Sequence record: OR621298
DNA from: Escherichia phage vB_EcoD-Elw
Strand: one strand, 5' to 3'
DNA: 64,000 bases
Under the pieces are notes generated by a model that was given only the letters and a program-made list of their open reading frames with translations, made no database searches and was not told where the DNA came from. A program made the position numbers and the translations under genes. Below, one piece after another: positions 9,041-64,000 of this stretch. Numbering within the stretch: position 1 is the first letter of the stretch; every line of letters begins with the position of its first letter.

Positions 9041-9745
9041 ATGGCCGGTTCTCGCAGAAAGAAACATATCCATGAAATCCCGGATGAAGTCTTTAAAAAA
9101 GTTATAGAGCATCTGGAGAACGGTGGTACTAAGAAAGCAGCTTGTGAGATGCTCGGCGTATCATCCAATCCAACTATGGAAAGGATGATTGAAGAGTGGC
9201 AAGACCGCCAGATTCAAGTTGCCGAAATGAAGAAAAAGAAACGTGGCACACTCATTGAAGGTATTGAGTTGGCCAACGTTATTGAACAGTATTTATCTGG
9301 TGATTCTTTTGAAGAGATTGCCGATCGTAATTATCGCTCTGTAGCAATGGTTAAATCTGTTCTGGAACGCTATGGTGCTCTGCTTCGTTTGAACGATATT
9401 GTAGACCCGTTGAATCCTCCTATTATTCCTGATGATGCTGTAGCAGAAGAATTTGAAGTTGGTGAGCTTGTTTGGGTTCCTGGATACCAGTGTATCGGTG
9501 AAATCAAAAAAGCAATGGATAATCCTGTTGGTTGCTACCGTGTATGGCTTCTATCGGAAGGCAAACAACAGAACGTTCATTATATGAATTATGAGCTGGC
9601 TTCTGTTAAACACCTGGAAAAGTTAGGAGTTGATGTAAAATCTCTGGGGTATAAATGGACTCGGGAAGAAGTCATTACGTTGATTAACGAAGCTGTTAAG
9701 GCCGCCTTGAAACTTGATAAAGAAAAAGGAAAACGCCGTGAGTAG
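9041..9745 (+). CDS. putative HTH DNA-binding early protein
   Basis: 234 aa; N-terminal HTH-like segment GGTKKAACEMLGVSSNPTMERM. Confidence 0.45.
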   Translation: MAGSRRKKHIHEIPDEVFKKVIEHLENGGTKKAACEMLGVSSNPTMERMIEEWQDRQIQVAEMKKKKRGTLIEGIELANVIEQYLSGDSFEEIADRNYRSVAMVKSVLERYGALLRLNDIVDPLNPPIIPDDAVAEEFEVGELVWVPGYQCIGEIKKAMDNPVGCYRVWLLSEGKQQNVHYMNYELASVKHLEKLGVDVKSLGYKWTREEVITLINEAVKAALKLDKEKGKRRE

Positions 9746-9989
9746 ACTAACTGATTTACTTAAAGATGGGGAAGTAAAAACACTATATCGTAGAAGCTGG
9801 GGTAACGATAATAACGGCTTAGTATTACTAACTTTAGATGCTGACTCGGATGTAGCTACTCAGCATACCTGGGTAGCCGGTAACTATCCATATAGCGAGG
9901 TTGTTTCATTAACAGTATGCGAAGCTATTGCAGACGATTGGGAGGTTGCCAGCATCGAGGATATGCTCGCTGTTGGCCTGGTGGAGTAA
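9714..9989 (+). CDS. hypothetical protein
   Basis: 91-aa ORF. Confidence 0.4.
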   Translation: MIKKKENAVSRLTDLLKDGEVKTLYRRSWGNDNNGLVLLTLDADSDVATQHTWVAGNYPYSEVVSLTVCEAIADDWEVASIEDMLAVGLVE

Positions 9990-10006
9990 CTACTTAAAAA
10001 TTTCAG

Positions 10007-10035
10007 TTGCTTAATCCTATAATTCTTGATATAAT
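10007..10035 (+). promoter_or_regulatory. early sigma70 promoter
   Basis: TTGCTT 10007-10012 and TATAAT 10030-10035, 17-bp spacer. Confidence 0.6.
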
Positions 10036-10092
10036 ATTCTCATAGTTTGAAAGAACTATTCTGTTTAATTCTTAATTAAGGAAATATAAAAT

Positions 10093-10503
10093 ATGACTAC
10101 TCCAACTCAGTGGACTGATGAACTGTTCGAAAAAATGTCTTCCGAATACGTTGCTCGTATGGAGCAATTCCCAGAGGATGAACGTCCTGGTGTTAGCATG
10201 GAAATTGTTAGCGAAATTGCCCAGGAAAATGGTGTAACTCCGAACGGTTTTCGTATGAAGCTAACTAAAGCAGGTTTGTACATCAAGAAAGCTGCTGGCT
10301 CTGCTTCTAAATCTAGTGCATCTACTGGAGAAAAAGCTTCTGGTGGTTCTCGCACTTCTAAAGCTAAAGCTCATGCCGACCTTCGTTCCGCATTCTCTGA
10401 TGCTGGCCTAGCACCAGATTTTCTGGATGATGCAATTATTGACAAACTGACCGGTAAAGCGGCTGCTCATCTGGCAGAAGCAATCCGAGCTATCACTAAG
10501 TAA
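10093..10503 (+). CDS. hypothetical Ala/Ser-rich early protein
   Basis: 136 aa; host-optimal codons suggest high expression. Confidence 0.5.
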   Translation: MTTPTQWTDELFEKMSSEYVARMEQFPEDERPGVSMEIVSEIAQENGVTPNGFRMKLTKAGLYIKKAAGSASKSSASTGEKASGGSRTSKAKAHADLRSAFSDAGLAPDFLDDAIIDKLTGKAAAHLAEAIRAITK

Positions 10504-23369: not shown

Positions 23370-25188
23370 GACACTAAAATTTAGTAACGTTATGTCTTAT
23401 GGTAAGGACATCGTAATTCATTTCGATAAGAATCCAGTTACTCAACTAATTGGTGGCAATGGACTAGGGAAATCCACCATCGCTACGGTTATTGAAGAAC
23501 TATTTTATAATAAGAACTCACGCGGCATTAAGAAGGATGCTCTGTTCTCTTGGTCTTCTCCGAAGAAAGAGTATGATATGCACGCTTACTTCTCGAAAGA
23601 TGAAGATGAGTACGAACTGCATAAAGTAGTTAAGTCAACTGCTAAAGTAACCCTTATTAAGAATGGAGAAGATATTAGTGGACACACGGCAACCCAAACA
23701 TACAAGATGATTGAAGAAATTATGGGTGGTGACTTCCAAACATTCACCAAACTGATTTATCAATCGGTGGGTTCCAATCTAGATTTTCTAAAAGCAACGG
23801 ATGCAACACGTAAGGCTTTTCTGGTTAACTTGTTCAATCAAGAACAGTATAAAGAAATGTCAGAAACTATTAAGGCTGACCGTAAAGAAATAGCAAATAC
23901 CTTAAATAATTTGCAGGGCCAGATGGCTGTAATTACGAAAATCCTTAATGGGAAAAATAATCTAGGTACTTTGCAGGAACCTGTAGAAGTACCGGAGTTT
24001 GATGAAGAGCCATTAGCACAAGAACTTACTGAATCGAAAATTAAGGCGGCATTAGCCAAGTCTCAAGAGGCTAATATTACTAAATTGCGTAATTTGGACA
24101 AAGCTGTACAAGTTGCTGAACAATCTTTCGAGCCTTTCAAAAATTTACCCGCGCCCACTGACCAAAATGAAGAGATCTCAAGTGTTACGCGTGACCTAAC
24201 GATTGTGACCTCACGTGCGGGCGAAGTTAAGAAACGTTATCAGAAGTTCAAGCAAGAGGCTTCAAATACTGAATGTCCTACCTGTGGTACTCATCTGGAT
24301 ACAACTGCTGCGCAAAAAGCAATGGATATGGCTAGAATAGAATATGACCCTCTGTTCAAAGAGAAGCAATCTCTTGAAGCTAAGCTAGAACAGTTGAAGA
24401 AAGAACAACTTGAGTACGTTGCATATACTAGAGCAAAGGATGCTTTGGATAAGGCAGTAGCAGCTAGAGACGAATTCAAAAATTCAATGAGTGATACTTC
24501 TTTTGAAGAACTCAATGTGCAAAACCTACAGGTGCAAATCCGACAATTAGAACAGGAAATAGCTGATGGCCGTTCTAAGGTTGCAATTGCCAAAGAGCAT
24601 AATGCAAATGTTGAATTAGCCAATGCAAAATATAAAGCGAAACTAGAACAGATTGAGAAAGCTGAGGCAGAAATGTCTGAGATTACTTCTAAACTGGATG
24701 AGGTATCAGAAGCTGTTGCTGATCTCGATATTCTGATCGCTGCATTAAAGAATCTAGTAGGATATAAACTAGAGCATAGTGTGAAAGTATTTGAAGAGCT
24801 TATCAATAAATATCTTTCCATTATGACTGGCGGTAAGTTCGCACTTGGATTTGAACTTGATGAAACAAAATTACAAGTAGTAATTTTCAATGATGGAAAC
24901 CGTACCAGTATGGAGAACTGCTCTACTGGTCAGCAAAGTCGAATCAACCTAGCAACCCTGTTAGCTATTCGAATGCTACTAACATCTATTAGTAAAGTTA
25001 ATATTAATCTTCTATTCCTTGATGAAGTAATTAGCTTTATTGATACTAAAGGACTTGACACTCTTGTTGAACTATTAAATGAGGAAGAAAGTCTAAACTC
25101 TATCATTGTTTCTCATGGGCATACGCATCCTTTAGCTCATAAGATTACTGTCAAAAAAGATGCAGAAGGATTTTCCTACTTAGAATAA
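23350..25188 (+). CDS. SbcC/Rad50-like ATPase (D13-like)
   Basis: Walker A GGNGLGKST, long coiled-coil with central CPTCG hook, C-terminal LLFLDE; start placed at ATG 23350. Confidence 0.7.
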   Translation: MSKITIKTLKFSNVMSYGKDIVIHFDKNPVTQLIGGNGLGKSTIATVIEELFYNKNSRGIKKDALFSWSSPKKEYDMHAYFSKDEDEYELHKVVKSTAKVTLIKNGEDISGHTATQTYKMIEEIMGGDFQTFTKLIYQSVGSNLDFLKATDATRKAFLVNLFNQEQYKEMSETIKADRKEIANTLNNLQGQMAVITKILNGKNNLGTLQEPVEVPEFDEEPLAQELTESKIKAALAKSQEANITKLRNLDKAVQVAEQSFEPFKNLPAPTDQNEEISSVTRDLTIVTSRAGEVKKRYQKFKQEASNTECPTCGTHLDTTAAQKAMDMARIEYDPLFKEKQSLEAKLEQLKKEQLEYVAYTRAKDALDKAVAARDEFKNSMSDTSFEELNVQNLQVQIRQLEQEIADGRSKVAIAKEHNANVELANAKYKAKLEQIEKAEAEMSEITSKLDEVSEAVADLDILIAALKNLVGYKLEHSVKVFEELINKYLSIMTGGKFALGFELDETKLQVVIFNDGNRTSMENCSTGQQSRINLATLLAIRMLLTSISKVNINLLFLDEVISFIDTKGLDTLVELLNEEESLNSIIVSHGHTHPLAHKITVKKDAEGFSYLE

Positions 25189-52955: not shown

Positions 52956-53189
52956 ATGAAAAAATTATTTTTAGCTATGGCAGTGGTACTTCTTTCGGCT
53001 TGCTCTACTTTTGGGCCTAAAGATATTAAATGTGAGGCCTACTATGTACAAGATCATGTGAAATATAAGGCTAATGTTTTTGATAGAAAAGGGGATATGT
53101 TCCTGGTGGCACCAATCATGGCCTATGGATCTTTCTGGGCTCCAGTAAGCTACTTTACCGAGGGGAATACATGTGAAGGAGTTTTCTGA
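52956..53189 (+). CDS. llp: lipoprotein Llp-like (receptor-blocking superinfection exclusion)
   Basis: 77 aa; lipobox LLSAC; convergent with the receptor-binding gene. Confidence 0.75.
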   Translation: MKKLFLAMAVVLLSACSTFGPKDIKCEAYYVQDHVKYKANVFDRKGDMFLVAPIMAYGSFWAPVSYFTEGNTCEGVF

Positions 53190-53301
53190 GGAGAATCCCT
53201 CCCATAAACCCATGCCACTTAGGGTGGATCCTAGGTCAAAACTAGTTCACAATGCAATTGAGGTCATTCAGAACACCATATAAGATAAAATGTTATGACT
53301 T

Positions 53302-53487
53302 GTGCAATTGCTAGAATATTCCAAATACCACATTTACGGGAGTATGAAAGACATGTCAAACGGCAACAAAAGAAAGAACAGACGTGGAGAAGTGTACGAT
53401 AGCTGGATTAATAGCTTTGGGTTCGGAACTATTCTATTCTTTATTTTCGTAGGTTTTTGGTTAGCAGCTATGGCGGGGTGGATCTAA
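53302..53487 (+). CDS. small membrane protein (start uncertain)
   Basis: 61 aa with a C-terminal hydrophobic helix; internal ATG at 53344 is an alternative start. Confidence 0.4.
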   Translation: MQLLEYSKYHIYGSMKDMSNGNKRKNRRGEVYDSWINSFGFGTILFFIFVGFWLAAMAGWI

Positions 53488-53594
53488 TGGACTGGGTAAT
53501 TATTGCACTACTGGGGATTGTGATTATTGGGCAATGTATCTTAGATAATCACTTAGCTAGAATCGAAACCTTACTATCGGAGAAACGTAAATGA
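53487..53594 (+). CDS. small membrane protein, 35 aa (not in ORF track)
   Basis: ATG 53487 overlaps the upstream TAA; encodes MDWVIIALLGIVIIGQCILDNHLARIETLLSEKRK. Confidence 0.35.
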   Translation: MDWVIIALLGIVIIGQCILDNHLARIETLLSEKRK

Positions 53595-53785
53595 TGGAAG
53601 TGGCAATTACACTAATGGTAATATTAGTCTGGGCAGTTTTCATTATTTATTACACCGTGTACGTTCGCCTAAAAACGCTAGAAGCTCAAGTGAAGCAACA
53701 GCAATTTGCTATAGAAAAACTATCAGAATTGCAACGTTGTGATAGTACCCGTATTCTGCAAATTGGGAGGGAATTAGATGTTTAG
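53591..53785 (+). CDS. small membrane protein
   Basis: 64 aa; N-terminal TM helix; ATGA overlap with the upstream stop. Confidence 0.4.
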   Translation: MMEVAITLMVILVWAVFIIYYTVYVRLKTLEAQVKQQQFAIEKLSELQRCDSTRILQIGRELDV

Positions 53786-54023
53786 TATTGTAATTGCTTT
53801 TATTATCGGGATACTCGCGGGGGTTTTCGGGACAACTGCGGCAATCAACAAGCATCGTAAATATATTGCGGGAGTGACGCGGGAGATTGCGGAAAGGGAG
53901 CGGAAGTTTGACGAGAAACGTGCGGAGTTTGAGCGAGAATGGTCGGATGGATCTCGGGCGTCGCGGAAGAGATTTCGTGAGTTTAGACCTGAACATCTGT
54001 TTGATGACCCTTCTATGCGCTAA
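53778..54023 (+). CDS. small membrane protein with charged C-terminus
   Basis: 81 aa; N-terminal TM helix and Arg/Glu-rich tail; may straddle a terminal-repeat boundary. Confidence 0.35.
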   Translation: MFSIVIAFIIGILAGVFGTTAAINKHRKYIAGVTREIAERERKFDEKRAEFEREWSDGSRASRKRFREFRPEHLFDDPSMR

Positions 54024-54174
54024 TTTGACTTTTGCCAAATTTCATAAGATTACACATGGAGGTGTGTCCACTGGCTGGCTAGATGAGAATGAGTCTCATT
54101 ACCGCCCGGTACTTAGCAGGCTAATAGTCACGGCATGTTATCATTACACACCGTGACTATTTCAACTTTAATTA

Positions 54175-54909
54175 TTACGCAACTTTTAATTTCTCAATAT
54201 ATTGTTGCGGGCTGCAACTATATTCTGCGCGTTCTTCCTCGGTCATACTTTCCCAACATAATTGCAGGCGGTCGGCTAGGAACTGATAATCATTATCATC
54301 CTCAAGAGATTCATCAATAAAGGTTTCACCTATCAATGTAACCCCAATCGATAGAATATCGTTAACGGCTTGCGCGTCCAGCGTTTTAAATCCGTATGAT
54401 GCCGCCGCTGATAGCACGCCTTTATGATCATCAATCATCGTGAAATCAGCGTTCGGATATAATTGTTTAAATAACTCAAAGTAATGGCTTTTATAAATAG
54501 CGTCTTTGCTGTGGTATATCTCGCTAACTTTATCAGCCTCAAAATATTTGTGTAGTGTATCGCGGGAAAATACACGGATATTACTATCCCCACGCCCTCG
54601 CAATCCTTGTTTGCGCAAATAATAATAATCCGACTTGCTCATTAGTCGAGCGGTGCAAATAATGTTTAACGTGTTAACGTCATTCATACATTGGCGCATA
54701 TATGTAACAAGGGGCAATAGTGTATCTTGCATTATTAAATCATGTTTGCAGGCTTCATTTTTATACTTATTTAAATCTAAATTGCCCTCGCTATCAAAGC
54801 AAGGCGCTACGCGATGGAAAGAATTAATGATAGTGCCGTCCAGATCCCAAATCATGACGCGGGAAATATGCGGGAAATTACGGGTAATATTCGTTTTAAC
54901 TTGATTCAT
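54175..54909 (-). CDS. dmp: HAD-family 5'-deoxyribonucleotidase (dmp-like)
   Basis: 244 aa; HAD motif I WDLDGTII and C-terminal MIDDHKG; first gene of the pre-early block. Confidence 0.7.
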   Translation of the reverse strand: MNQVKTNITRNFPHISRVMIWDLDGTIINSFHRVAPCFDSEGNLDLNKYKNEACKHDLIMQDTLLPLVTYMRQCMNDVNTLNIICTARLMSKSDYYYLRKQGLRGRGDSNIRVFSRDTLHKYFEADKVSEIYHSKDAIYKSHYFELFKQLYPNADFTMIDDHKGVLSAAASYGFKTLDAQAVNDILSIGVTLIGETFIDESLEDDNDYQFLADRLQLCWESMTEEERAEYSCSPQQYIEKLKVA

Positions 54910-54989
54910 TTTGTTACGTTCTCCATTTAAGGGATTAGATTAATTCAGCATTACCCGCTATTTATAAGCGGGTAATAATAAATTAACTA

Positions 54990-55382
54990 TTAAAGACCAT
55001 ACGCCAACGCATCAGCAATAAAACTAATATCTTCACCAGATACACCGGAACGAATGCCCGCGCAGGTATATACCTTTGCGCTGGTCAATTGATCATCGAG
55101 GCAAGCGGGGCAAGGCGCGACAACTGCAAAGGCTAGGCCGGATTTTACGGCGTCGATGATAATCGTTTCTTGTTTCACAGTGTCAACATAAACACCTTTT
55201 GCTTTAATATGGCTAGTTAGTTTACCTTGCGTATAGGCAAAGGTAGTAACCTGCAAAGCGTCGTTAAAGTCCAATAGCTCATCAATAACGTGCCCCGCCT
55301 CGACGTGGTAACGTTCACCATTAGAATAAACCAGAACAATGGAAGATTGAGCGCGATCGAATGGGATATTTTGCTTTTTCAT
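54990..55382 (-). CDS. hypothetical pre-early protein
   Basis: 130-aa ORF. Confidence 0.45.
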   Translation of the reverse strand: MKKQNIPFDRAQSSIVLVYSNGERYHVEAGHVIDELLDFNDALQVTTFAYTQGKLTSHIKAKGVYVDTVKQETIIIDAVKSGLAFAVVAPCPACLDDQLTSAKVYTCAGIRSGVSGEDISFIADALAYGL

Positions 55383-62969: not shown

Positions 62970-63221
62970 AACGATGGTTTAATCACTGGTATAAGCGGTT
63001 TTTAGTACGCCGTCGCAAATCTAGACATCAAGATGAGTGGCGGGAGTGGGCAAAGCGTAACGGTTGCCCGCTACTCTGAGAACGACGGGGATTAGCTCCC
63101 CGTTTTTCCATGCCTCCAGTTAAATACCCCCTTGTTTTAGTATCCCCACCAAAATTAAACGCGTTAGAATGCGATCTAGGACGTTTTAGCGGTATATTAG
63201 AATTATTCACTACATAGGAAT

Positions 63222-63332
63222 ACTGTATATTTATACAGTAGGATAAGCTGTGGATAAGTCTGTTAATAACGCCTCAAAATGGCTAGGATTCTGTCAAGTC
63301 AAATCGTGCTGTTAATAAGTCTGTGGATAACT
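63222..63332. promoter_or_regulatory. DnaA boxes (inverted orientation) and palindrome
   Basis: TGTGGATAA at 63249-63257 and 63322-63330; palindrome actgtata-tt-tatacagt at 63222-63239. Confidence 0.55.
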
Positions 63333-63344
63333 TAAATAATAGTG

Positions 63345-63506
63345 TTTCTCACTTCCATTCTTAAATGCAAATCATTATCATTCGCATTTCACTTTCTAAA
63401 TGAGAATCATTTCACTTCTTGAATAGTTCTCATTTCACTTTTTAAATGCGAATTATTATCATTCTCATTTCGCTTTTTAAATGATTCTTATTATCATTCG
63501 CATTCA
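63345..63506. repeat. five degenerate ~30-bp direct repeats
   Basis: Units of form tt(t/c)tTAAATG(c/a)gAAT(t/c)ATTATCATTCGCATTTCAC, imperfect, no unique spacers. Confidence 0.7.
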
Positions 63507-63509
63507 GGC

Positions 63510-63536
63510 GCGCAGGGCAATTGCCCTGCGCTTTTG
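63510..63536 (+). terminator. GC-rich palindrome with T-tract
   Basis: gcgcagggc-aatt-gccctgcgc followed by tttt. Confidence 0.45.
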
Positions 63537-63757
63537 TGCAAATCCGACATTGCTCCACGGGTGTTACGTGCGGGCGTGTATGTGCGAATCCGACAATTTT
63601 TGGTAGTGTGCAAATCCGACCCGAAAAATTTTTATAGTGTGCAAATCCGACAATGAATTTTCCCAAAAACTCCAGCAATCCGATGCTGCGCATCAATCCT
63701 GTGGAATTAGCTAGAATATGTGCAAATCCGACATGGGTTTATTTGTGCGAATCCGAC
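63536..63757. repeat. six direct 13-bp iterons GTGC(A/G)AATCCGAC
   Basis: Copies at 63536, 63582, 63608, 63639, 63720 and 63745, same orientation; degenerate copy near 63674. Confidence 0.75.
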
Positions 63758-64000
63758 AAGATTTTTGTGACTTTGATTGGAGGGTGTGTGATTGTATGGG
63801 TTTGAGGAGAAGATGAGAGAGCGAGAAAAATTTGAGGGAACTGTGAGAGGGGCGCAGGATTGGTGCGGAGCACCTGATTTGCGGGGATTTTGGGGAAGAG
63901 TTGAGATAATTTGGGAAGATTTGGGATAGGTGCAGATAAAGTAAAATTTTATTAGCAAAACGAGGCAAAATAGCTTGACAAGTGAAAATTTCTGTGGCTC

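Follow-up and report, generated by a model that had tools for sequence, protein, structure and literature searches.

Introduction

Near the distal end of its long terminal repeat (TR), the genome of bacteriophage T5 carries a non-coding region that is highly conserved among T5-like phages and rich in repeats, palindromes, and DnaA boxes. The region is annotated as Repeat Region 3 in one T5 record (AY587007, 9194-10409) and as iss, short for injection stop signal, in another (AY543070, 9140-10149), and its marked features include direct repeat A (DRA) copies A2 and A3 and direct repeat D (DRD) copies D1-D9. The literature places the stop of the first step of T5 DNA transfer to the left of the segment studied here, with a shear point at ~9618 that defines the pause, and reviews credit the stop to the repeats, palindromes, and secondary structure of the region. 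Papers from 2023-2026 still describe the mechanism as poorly understood, and the Davison preprint lists DRA copies 2 and 3 without an assigned role. Here we analyze the counterpart of the distal part of this region in a 64,000-nucleotide (nt) stretch of Escherichia phage vB_EcoD-Elw (OR621298), referred to below as the window. A first-pass annotation of the window had singled out positions 63780-63935 as a purine-rich tract, free of open reading frames (ORFs), that follows an iteron array and could be a terminal or packaging-related sequence, a nick-site region, or a structured DNA element contributing to the injection pause.

Two packaging signals from other phages are useful for comparison. 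In lambda, cosB contains the binding sites for the terminase small subunit and adjoins the cleavage site cosN; it is ~100-150 bp long, contains short repeated motifs, and lies just inside the first-packaged end, ~50-200 bp from the cut. The ends of lambda are cohesive, while T5 has blunt or unique ends and a 10-kb direct repeat. T3 and T7 have genomes with direct terminal repeats, of which the left end is injected first and the right end is formed first, and their pacB signal has recognition sequences beside the right-end cut with short repeat arrays flanking it. The repeat of T7 measures 160 bp, as opposed to ~10 kb, and T7 RNA polymerase takes part in the process.

Results

The tract corresponds to the distal non-coding end of the T5 terminal repeat

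Homology identifies the window as the right 64 kb of a T5-like genome (Tequintavirus) that closes in a 9.9-kb right TR. In a BLAST search, positions 63000-64000 matched 450 phage records, with Escherichia phage FFH1 as the top match (96.3% identity) and T5 at 88% over AY543070 9188-10219, where the annotated T5 features (iss, DRD, DRA, and TR end) correspond to the window one to one. At the other end of the repeat, 53000-55000 aligns with T5 110555-112562, which spans the start of the T5 right TR. The alignment identifies the tract as orthologous to the far, non-coding end of T5's long TR, between iteron DRD6 and the TR boundary (Table 1). Both phages have the same order of elements, namely a terminator, DnaA boxes, direct repeat C (DRC) copies, palindrome J with its nick, six DRD iterons, the G-rich tract with the DRA repeats, and the TR end, and there is no essential difference between them. 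The tract is thus the counterpart of an already known and annotated feature rather than a new kind of element. What the comparison adds to the earlier annotation is two hairpins (HP1 and HP2), an inverted element, a fixed length, and conservation in the distantly related Pectobacterium phage My1; the published T5 annotation leaves the G-rich composition unmarked, and neither the hairpins nor the 43-nt inverted repeat is among the annotated features of AY587007.

The last nucleotide of the window coincides with the annotated TR end of T5 (AY587007 10139; AY543070 10219) and of Spc35 (9573), as well as with the ends annotated as PhageTerm-determined in Sw2 (9816) and Sepoy (10295). The records of NBSal003, NBSal005, TUMS_E3, and SIY1lw begin or finish exactly at the equivalent nucleotide, and the TR end given for Stitch is 5 nt from the position shared by T5, Spc35, Sw2, and Sepoy. 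The final bases of the window (…TTTCTGTGGCTC) align with the final bases of the T5 repeat (…TTTCTGTGGATC). We therefore take this position as the physical right end of the genome, which places the tract 65-220 nt from that end.

The tract is G-rich, C-poor, and non-coding

The tract consists of 67 G, 41 A, 38 T, and 10 C (G+A 69%, G 43%, C 6.4%, G+T 67%). Compared with all 156-nt segments of the 64 kb, it has the highest G content and essentially the lowest C content, and its purine content lies at the 99.97th percentile, within 0.7 percentage points of the maximum. The purine-rich composition reported in the first-pass annotation is therefore real and extreme, but "G-rich and C-poor" describes the tract better than "purine-rich". 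The position after an iteron array was also confirmed, with all six GTGCRAATCCGAC copies on the plus strand. A search of 5,426 E. coli genomes returned no match to the tract. G content over 156 nt reaches its minimum for the window (7%) at 63347-63502, in the zone of DRC and AAATGAGAATCATT repeats, so that strand composition flips sharply across the nick site, from this stretch upstream to the most G-rich one downstream.

Read literally, the statement that there is no ORF on either strand does not hold, as three mechanical ORFs overlap the tract (63707-63958, minus strand, 83 amino acids; 63711-63968, minus strand, 85 amino acids; 63792-63929, plus strand, 45 amino acids), but none of them is a gene. 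Several GenBank records do annotate hypothetical proteins here, and ORFs of 45-85 amino acids could in principle be read as support for a small protein. These annotations conflict in strand, frame, and extent, however, as seen in Sw2 (gp016/017), Sepoy (Sepoy_021/022), BSP22A_0019, P29_0014, SSP1_052, and others. Among the relatives, stops occur in every plus-strand frame and no frame is open throughout, while the minus-strand frames are open because the minus strand contains only 6% G. Substitutions in the tract have no three-base periodicity (0.24/0.25/0.19 by phase), in comparison with 0.064/0.036/0.14 at codon positions 1/2/3 of a real ORF at 53778-54024. It is accordingly extremely improbable that the tract encodes a protein, and the annotated coding sequences are probably gene-caller artefacts of strand-biased composition.

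That real ORF, a homologue of T5 ORF151, accounts for the purine-rich segment at 53.8-54.0 kb that the tract had been said to mirror. The likeness holds for composition (53817-53972 is 66% purine), but the segment is coding and unrelated. In some relatives the ORF is absent from beside the TR start and other genes are in its place. We therefore rejected the segment, which is coding and not always present, as a partner element of the tract. More broadly, the genes upstream of the left TR boundary differ among relatives.

Length, composition, and flanking sequence are conserved

To describe conservation we used an alignment of 33 distinct relatives and the mean pairwise identity per bin. The first-pass annotation had listed a lack of conservation among relatives as part of what would count against its proposals, and the tract is conserved. 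Its length is 156-158 nt in 32 of them and 162 nt in the remaining one, with G at 39-46% and C at 5-10%. Conservation is uneven along its length. At the left edge is a conserved G/T-rich block, and not one C occurs in any relative over 40 alignment columns (63776-63815). The part that follows, 63816-63850, is the least conserved of the whole region (identity 0.61-0.72). Within this most variable part, the window and T5 have what looks like a decayed iteron, since Epseptimavirus relatives have an intact extra iteron at the same place.

The right half of the tract contains the short direct repeats that correspond to DRA copies 2 and 3 of T5, within which TTTTGGGGA is invariant in the 33 relatives and TRF detects a period-10 array of 3.4 copies (63893-63926). 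The motif TTTGRGR, which was picked after the data had been inspected, has five copies in the tract (including 63801 and 63831), against 0.78 expected in local dinucleotide shuffles. DRA copy 1 of T5 is located inside ORF011 and is probably a chance match.

Between the tract and the cut lies a near-invariant A/T-rich block that includes TTGACA at 63975-63980, 20 nt before the cut. In relatives the near-invariance (identity 0.94-0.99) runs ~55 nt past the cut into unique DNA, including a GGGCCTTCGGCCC hairpin, so that 110 nt across the cut are 0.94-0.99 identical in the 33 relatives (e.g., FFH1 locus L024, 1753-1865). From this comparison, the block that spans the cut, from 63945 to ~55 nt beyond the repeat, is the most conserved non-coding block of the region and the prime candidate for the cleavage site. 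The TTGACA sequence was also considered as the -35 element of a sigma-70 promoter, with a -10 hexamer sought at a spacing of 16-18 nt, and rejected: the promoter scan made no call there, the best -10 element (TCTAAA) would lie across the cut, and My1 has GGCGGA at that place. The same scan called no promoter in the tract itself. An 18-mer, GCTTGACAAGTGAAAATT, recurs in three unrelated IMG/VR contigs (L036, L039, and L044), where it belongs to genuine promoters with TATAAT 17 nt downstream; these matches were treated as chance because their number is about that expected in so large a collection.

Two hairpins covary and lie in the arms of an inverted repeat

HP2 is located within the tract and HP1 (GATGC at 63682-86, loop TGC, GCATC at 63690-94) in a C-rich element, L, further upstream. 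Most relatives have GGTGC/GCACC as the inner stem of HP2, three have GGCGT/ACGCC, and others have TGGTGC/GCACCG around a loop of 4 nt, while the outer stem alternates between CGCA/TGCG and GCAGC/GCTGC; every one of these haplotypes pairs. HP1 varies, with perfect compensation, among the stems GATGC/GCATC, CGAAC/GTTCG, CGAGC/GCTCG, and CGTGC/GCAC; one group of four sequences has it disrupted. For the two hairpins together, 91.5% of alignment cells pair, compared with 28-52% in slid registers, and both sides have changed in seven of the 14 pairs. Covariation scored 0.394, as opposed to 0.150 in shuffled alignments, and none of 500 shuffles reached the observed value. The fold z-scores of HP2 are -2.2 (DNA) and -2.4 (RNA). 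The idea of a structured DNA element is thus partly supported, by HP2 and its compensatory changes, but no conserved G-quadruplex and no sign of curvature was found. A potential G-quadruplex in the window (GGGG…GGGG…GGG…GGG, 63883-63925) lacks its fourth run in T5 (TTTGAGAT) and loses more in the Epseptimaviruses, and AAA/TTT tracts in the tract have no helical periodicity of the kind expected for intrinsic curvature (P=0.52).

HP1 and HP2 lie inside the ~45-nt arms of an imperfect inverted repeat, in which 43 nt (63659-63701 and 63855-63897) are 77% complementary. L is similar to the reverse complement of the right half of the tract with z=10 (window), 6.6 (T5), and 7.2 (Sw2), a similarity that weakens in other relatives and is missing from My1. 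Long-range pairing of the two is the dominant feature of the fold computed for a single strand. The C-rich L is mirrored in the right half of the tract, and part of the G-richness of the tract is therefore an image of the upstream element. Between the arms lie iterons 5 and 6 as well as the C-free block.

A hairpin followed by a T-run raises the question of a role in transcription, with HP2 acting as a rho-independent terminator or insulator for rightward transcription, L doing the same leftward, and the tract lying in a non-coding transcript. In the window, ATTTTGGGG comes directly after HP2; in the Epseptimaviruses, a stem of -18 to -20 kcal/mol precedes GTTTTTGGGG, and their versions place GTTTTT after a stronger stem than that of the window. 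In FFH1 the minus-strand mirror element was classed as terminator-like, the plus strand tolerates G·U pairs, and nine of 14 relatives have a leftward TTGACA-N17/18-TGtTATAAT promoter 595-650 nt to the right of the TR end. However, the T-run of the window is too weak for the terminator scan, which made no call at HP2, and the My1 hairpin is followed by TTT only. Two strong terminator-like hairpins are already present upstream (63080-63108 and 63510-63531), and no promoter turned up in the stretch from there to HP2. A search with the covariance models of Rfam 15 found no family match, the sole hit being a chance microRNA (E=0.44) elsewhere in the FFH1 locus, and a literature search found no transcript-end data that cover the region. 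On balance we consider a function in transcription improbable. In FFH1 the leftward promoter is a full-consensus one (locus L024, 2407-2436, minus strand), located outside the region covered by the window and pointing toward the TR end; it could transcribe a 43-amino-acid ORF and possibly the end of the repeat and the tract as a C-rich RNA.

The layout extends to another subfamily

Pectobacterium phage My1 (JX195166, Myunavirus, Mccorquodalevirinae) belongs to another subfamily, and its A1 protein is 66% identical, yet its modules come in the same order, from DnaA boxes through DRC-like repeats, iterons (GTGCAAATCCGAC), a hairpin like HP1, a G-rich and C-poor tract, a further hairpin, and a TTGACA block to the cut. 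Its tract contains 35-44% G and 5-9% C and ends ~30-60 nt before the annotated TR end. The second hairpin is ~125 nt from the cut (HP2 is 128 nt from the cut in the window) and is longer than HP2. The A/T-rich block is recognizable, with the cut 22 nt past TTGACA in My1 and 20 nt past it in T5. My1 differs in that the sequence of its tract is essentially unalignable with the window and in that all of its iterons are upstream of HP1.

The retention of composition in My1 bears on another explanation, according to which the tract lacks any sequence-specific function and serves as a spacer: a decayed iteron array that matters only in that its length spaces its neighbors, and whose G-richness comes partly from the inverted duplication of L. 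In keeping with this explanation, identity is lower in mid-tract (0.61-0.75) than anywhere else in the region, the Epseptimaviruses have an intact iteron where that of the window is decayed, and the right half is an inverted copy of 63659-63701. But the length varies by only ±1 nt in 32 of 33 relatives, the 40 columns are C-free throughout, TTTTGGGGA and the pairing of HP2 are kept, and My1 retains the composition at almost zero sequence identity; neutral decay would not preserve such a strand bias. A plain spacer is therefore unlikely, although slightly less so than a transcriptional element.

In the more distant Vibrio phage Noelle, with A1 at 33% identity, the exact iteron GTGCAAATCCGAC is kept, and TTTTGGGGATTTGGG…TTGAC (GATTTTGGGGATTTGGG…TTGAC) occurs within 100 nt of the TR boundary, on its outer side. 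A purine-rich tandem array in Noelle (eight copies of TGGATAGAAGTCTAGA) was rejected as a relative of the tract; its likeness is to the CTAGAA repeats that T5 has rightward of its TR end.

Iterons, palindrome J, and the boundaries of the repeat

Whole-window matches to the iteron number seven, compared with 0.08 expected, and the only copy outside the array is at 24532-24544. The 13-nt GTGCAAATCCGAC form is found letter for letter in My1 (locus L071, 5358-5503) and Noelle (locus L072, ~85-175). This identity, despite the divergence of A1, suggests a very conserved binding protein from either phage or host.

Palindrome J, ~250 nt upstream of the tract, is the homologue of a major T5 interruption, and the proposal of a nick-site region was not supported for the tract itself. 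The two annotated major T5 nicks that we examined, nick 1 (TTGCCCTGCGC) and nick 4 (TTGCCCGCGCC), share TTGCCC(T)GCGC, which is absent from the tract. A tract sequence, GGGGCGCAGG, does resemble the left arm of palindrome J and yields CCTGCGC on the minus strand at 63852, but CCTGCGC occurs eight times in the window and its GCGC is lost in the Epseptimaviruses and My1. A T5-type single-strand interruption within the tract is hence very improbable.

Further upstream, TGTGGATAA DnaA boxes are present at 63249 and 63322. The pair (63249-63331) stands beside a palindrome, CTGTATATTTATACAG (63223-63238), for which Noelle has a counterpart, CTGTATAAATATACAG, also with TGTGGATAA boxes (locus L072, ~430-520). 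The palindrome and the boxes are shared by the window and Noelle, and the DnaA-box module is thus conserved across subfamilies of the Demerecviridae.

At the left boundary of the repeat, a conserved block lies directly left of the TR start in 16 relatives. The flank just outside the repeat (54019-54064) reads GCGCTAATT-N11-AAATTTCATAAGATTACACATG-N-AGGTGT up to the boundary and is unlike the flank at the right boundary. Conserved flanks that differ between the two TR boundaries are expected if the initiation and termination cuts are distinct. A motif common to both boundaries, TTGAC-N6/7-AAATTTC near each cut, was treated as chance because T5 does not keep the left TTGAC, which also lies farther from its cut than the right one does (40 as opposed to 26 nt).

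Table 1. Positions in the window of the tract, its neighbors, and the terminal repeat boundaries
Feature	Position	Strand	Description and basis
G-rich, C-poor non-coding tract	63780..63935	+	Orthologous to ~AY543070 9997-10154, within annotated T5 iss (9140-10149)
Conserved G/T-rich block	63766..63815	+	TTTTTGTGACTTYGAT.GGAGGGTGTGTGATTGT.TG.GTTTG.GGAGAAG; identity 0.85-0.93
Decayed iteron	63814..63825	+	TGAGAGAGCGAG in window and T5; intact extra iteron TGCGAATCCGAC in Epseptimavirus relatives
Hairpin HP2	63853..63883	+	Inner stem GGTGC (63862-66)/GCACC (63870-74), loop GGA; outer stem CGCA(GG)/(TT)TGCG; followed by TTTT run
Short direct repeats	63886..63929	+	TTTGGGGA / TTTGGGAAGA, T5 direct repeat A copies 2 and 3; AY587007 annotation
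Near-invariant A/T-rich block	63945..64000	+	Extends to TR boundary; identity 0.94-0.99 in 33 relatives
TR right boundary (inferred physical right genome end)	64000		Same nucleotide as TR ends of relatives
C-rich element L with HP1	63656..63703	+	Imperfect inverted copy of right half of tract (63855-63897)
Six iterons GTGCRAATCCGAC	63536..63757	+	T5 direct repeat D copies 1-6, directly upstream of tract; AY587007 annotation
Palindrome J (GCGCAGGGCAATTGCCCTGCGC)	63510..63531	+	Homologue of T5 major interruption (7.9%/99.5%); T5 annotation and motif comparison
TR left boundary (start), inferred	54065		…GGAGGTG / TGTCCACTG… (slash, boundary); alignment to AY587007 position 1 / 111614
Small ORF, T5 ORF151 homologue	53778..54024	+	Just outside TR start; sequence, T5 annotation, codon-position variability

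Discussion

We tentatively favor the reading that the tract is part of a cis-acting signal for formation of the right terminus and the start of packaging. The left end of T5 DNA is injected first, so that with last-in-first-out order the right end would be packaged first, and the DNA just inside the right TR boundary is then where the terminase complex would bind. Such a geometry would parallel cosB and cosN in lambda, or pacB beside the right-end cut in T3 and T7. In this arrangement the tract would serve as a strand-biased platform with a fixed length of ~157 bp that sets the repeats and the hairpin or palindrome ~125 nt from the cleavage site. The signal would also comprise HP2 along with the TTTGGGG/TTTGGGA repeats and the near-invariant block across the cut, this block being the cleavage site proper. 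Like cosB and pacB, the tract adjoins a defined terminus, on the side that would be packaged first given left-end-first injection, and it has short repeated motifs and structure at a fixed distance from the cut (TTTGRGR, the period-10 array, and HP2, at 125-128 nt in the window and My1). The likeness to cosB is one of position only, with no sequence similarity and no known binding protein for the tract, and there is likewise no sequence relationship with the T7 signal. Of the first-pass proposal of a terminal or packaging-related sequence, the terminal location is borne out, the tract ending 65 nt from the right end, and the packaging role is what we infer.

Several points weigh against this reading. 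Our literature search found nothing on T5 packaging signals, nor on terminase binding or genetics, and the packaging direction of T5 is itself a deduction. Judged by conservation, the best candidate for a cleavage signal is the invariant block rather than the tract, which has a mid-section of only 0.61-0.75 identity and could be a mere spacer. In Noelle, the TTTGGGG/TTGAC module is outside the annotated TR end and not inside it. Only the pork29 and chee24 records move the TR end forward by ~207 nt, to where the G-rich tract starts; this early boundary may be either an assembly or annotation convention or a genuine difference in cut site. In pork29 (MF431732) the repeat_region ends at 9968, and the right-end copy in records of the chee24/pork29 family lacks the tract.

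Finally, the copy of the tract within the left-hand terminal repeat (LTR) would lie 250-450 nt behind the injection stop, and a role in second-step transfer fits this position equally well. The tract may accordingly be part of the injection-stop and second-step-transfer apparatus, where A1/A2 or some other factor would bind it as the DNA that enters first after the pause, or, as a variant of the same idea, act as a structured segment lodged in the tail tube or connector during the time that the leading 8% of the genome is in the cell. The tract is within the AY543070 feature annotated as an injection stop signal, between iterons DRD1-6 and DRD7-9 and ~300-450 nt beyond the T5 shear point, and it has conserved hairpins and the 43-nt inverted repeat nearby. 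However, it keeps a fixed distance to the TR boundary in T5-like phages and My1, and nothing links A1 or A2 to these sequences. We regard this explanation, including its variant, as possible but doubtful, and less probable than a packaging signal.

A more speculative combination, which we consider quite improbable, is that the tract, HP2, and the inverted element L together act as a physical brake or latch in two-step delivery. With the leading 8% injected, the segment would be ~300-450 bp behind the entry point and hence in the tail tube or head-tail connector, where a hairpin, a cruciform, or a protein bound to it would keep the DNA in place until A1/A2 act. The copy in the right repeat would double as the packaging start site.

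For the annotation of these genomes, the analysis implies that gene calls for small "hypothetical proteins" in this region, as many phage records have them, are almost certainly false. The region can now be divided into parts: a fixed-length G-rich platform, two covarying hairpins, period-10 repeats, and a near-invariant block that is recognizable even in My1. This non-coding kilobase bears on two problems in the biology of T5-like phages, namely how the 10-kb TR is cut and duplicated and how injection is paused.

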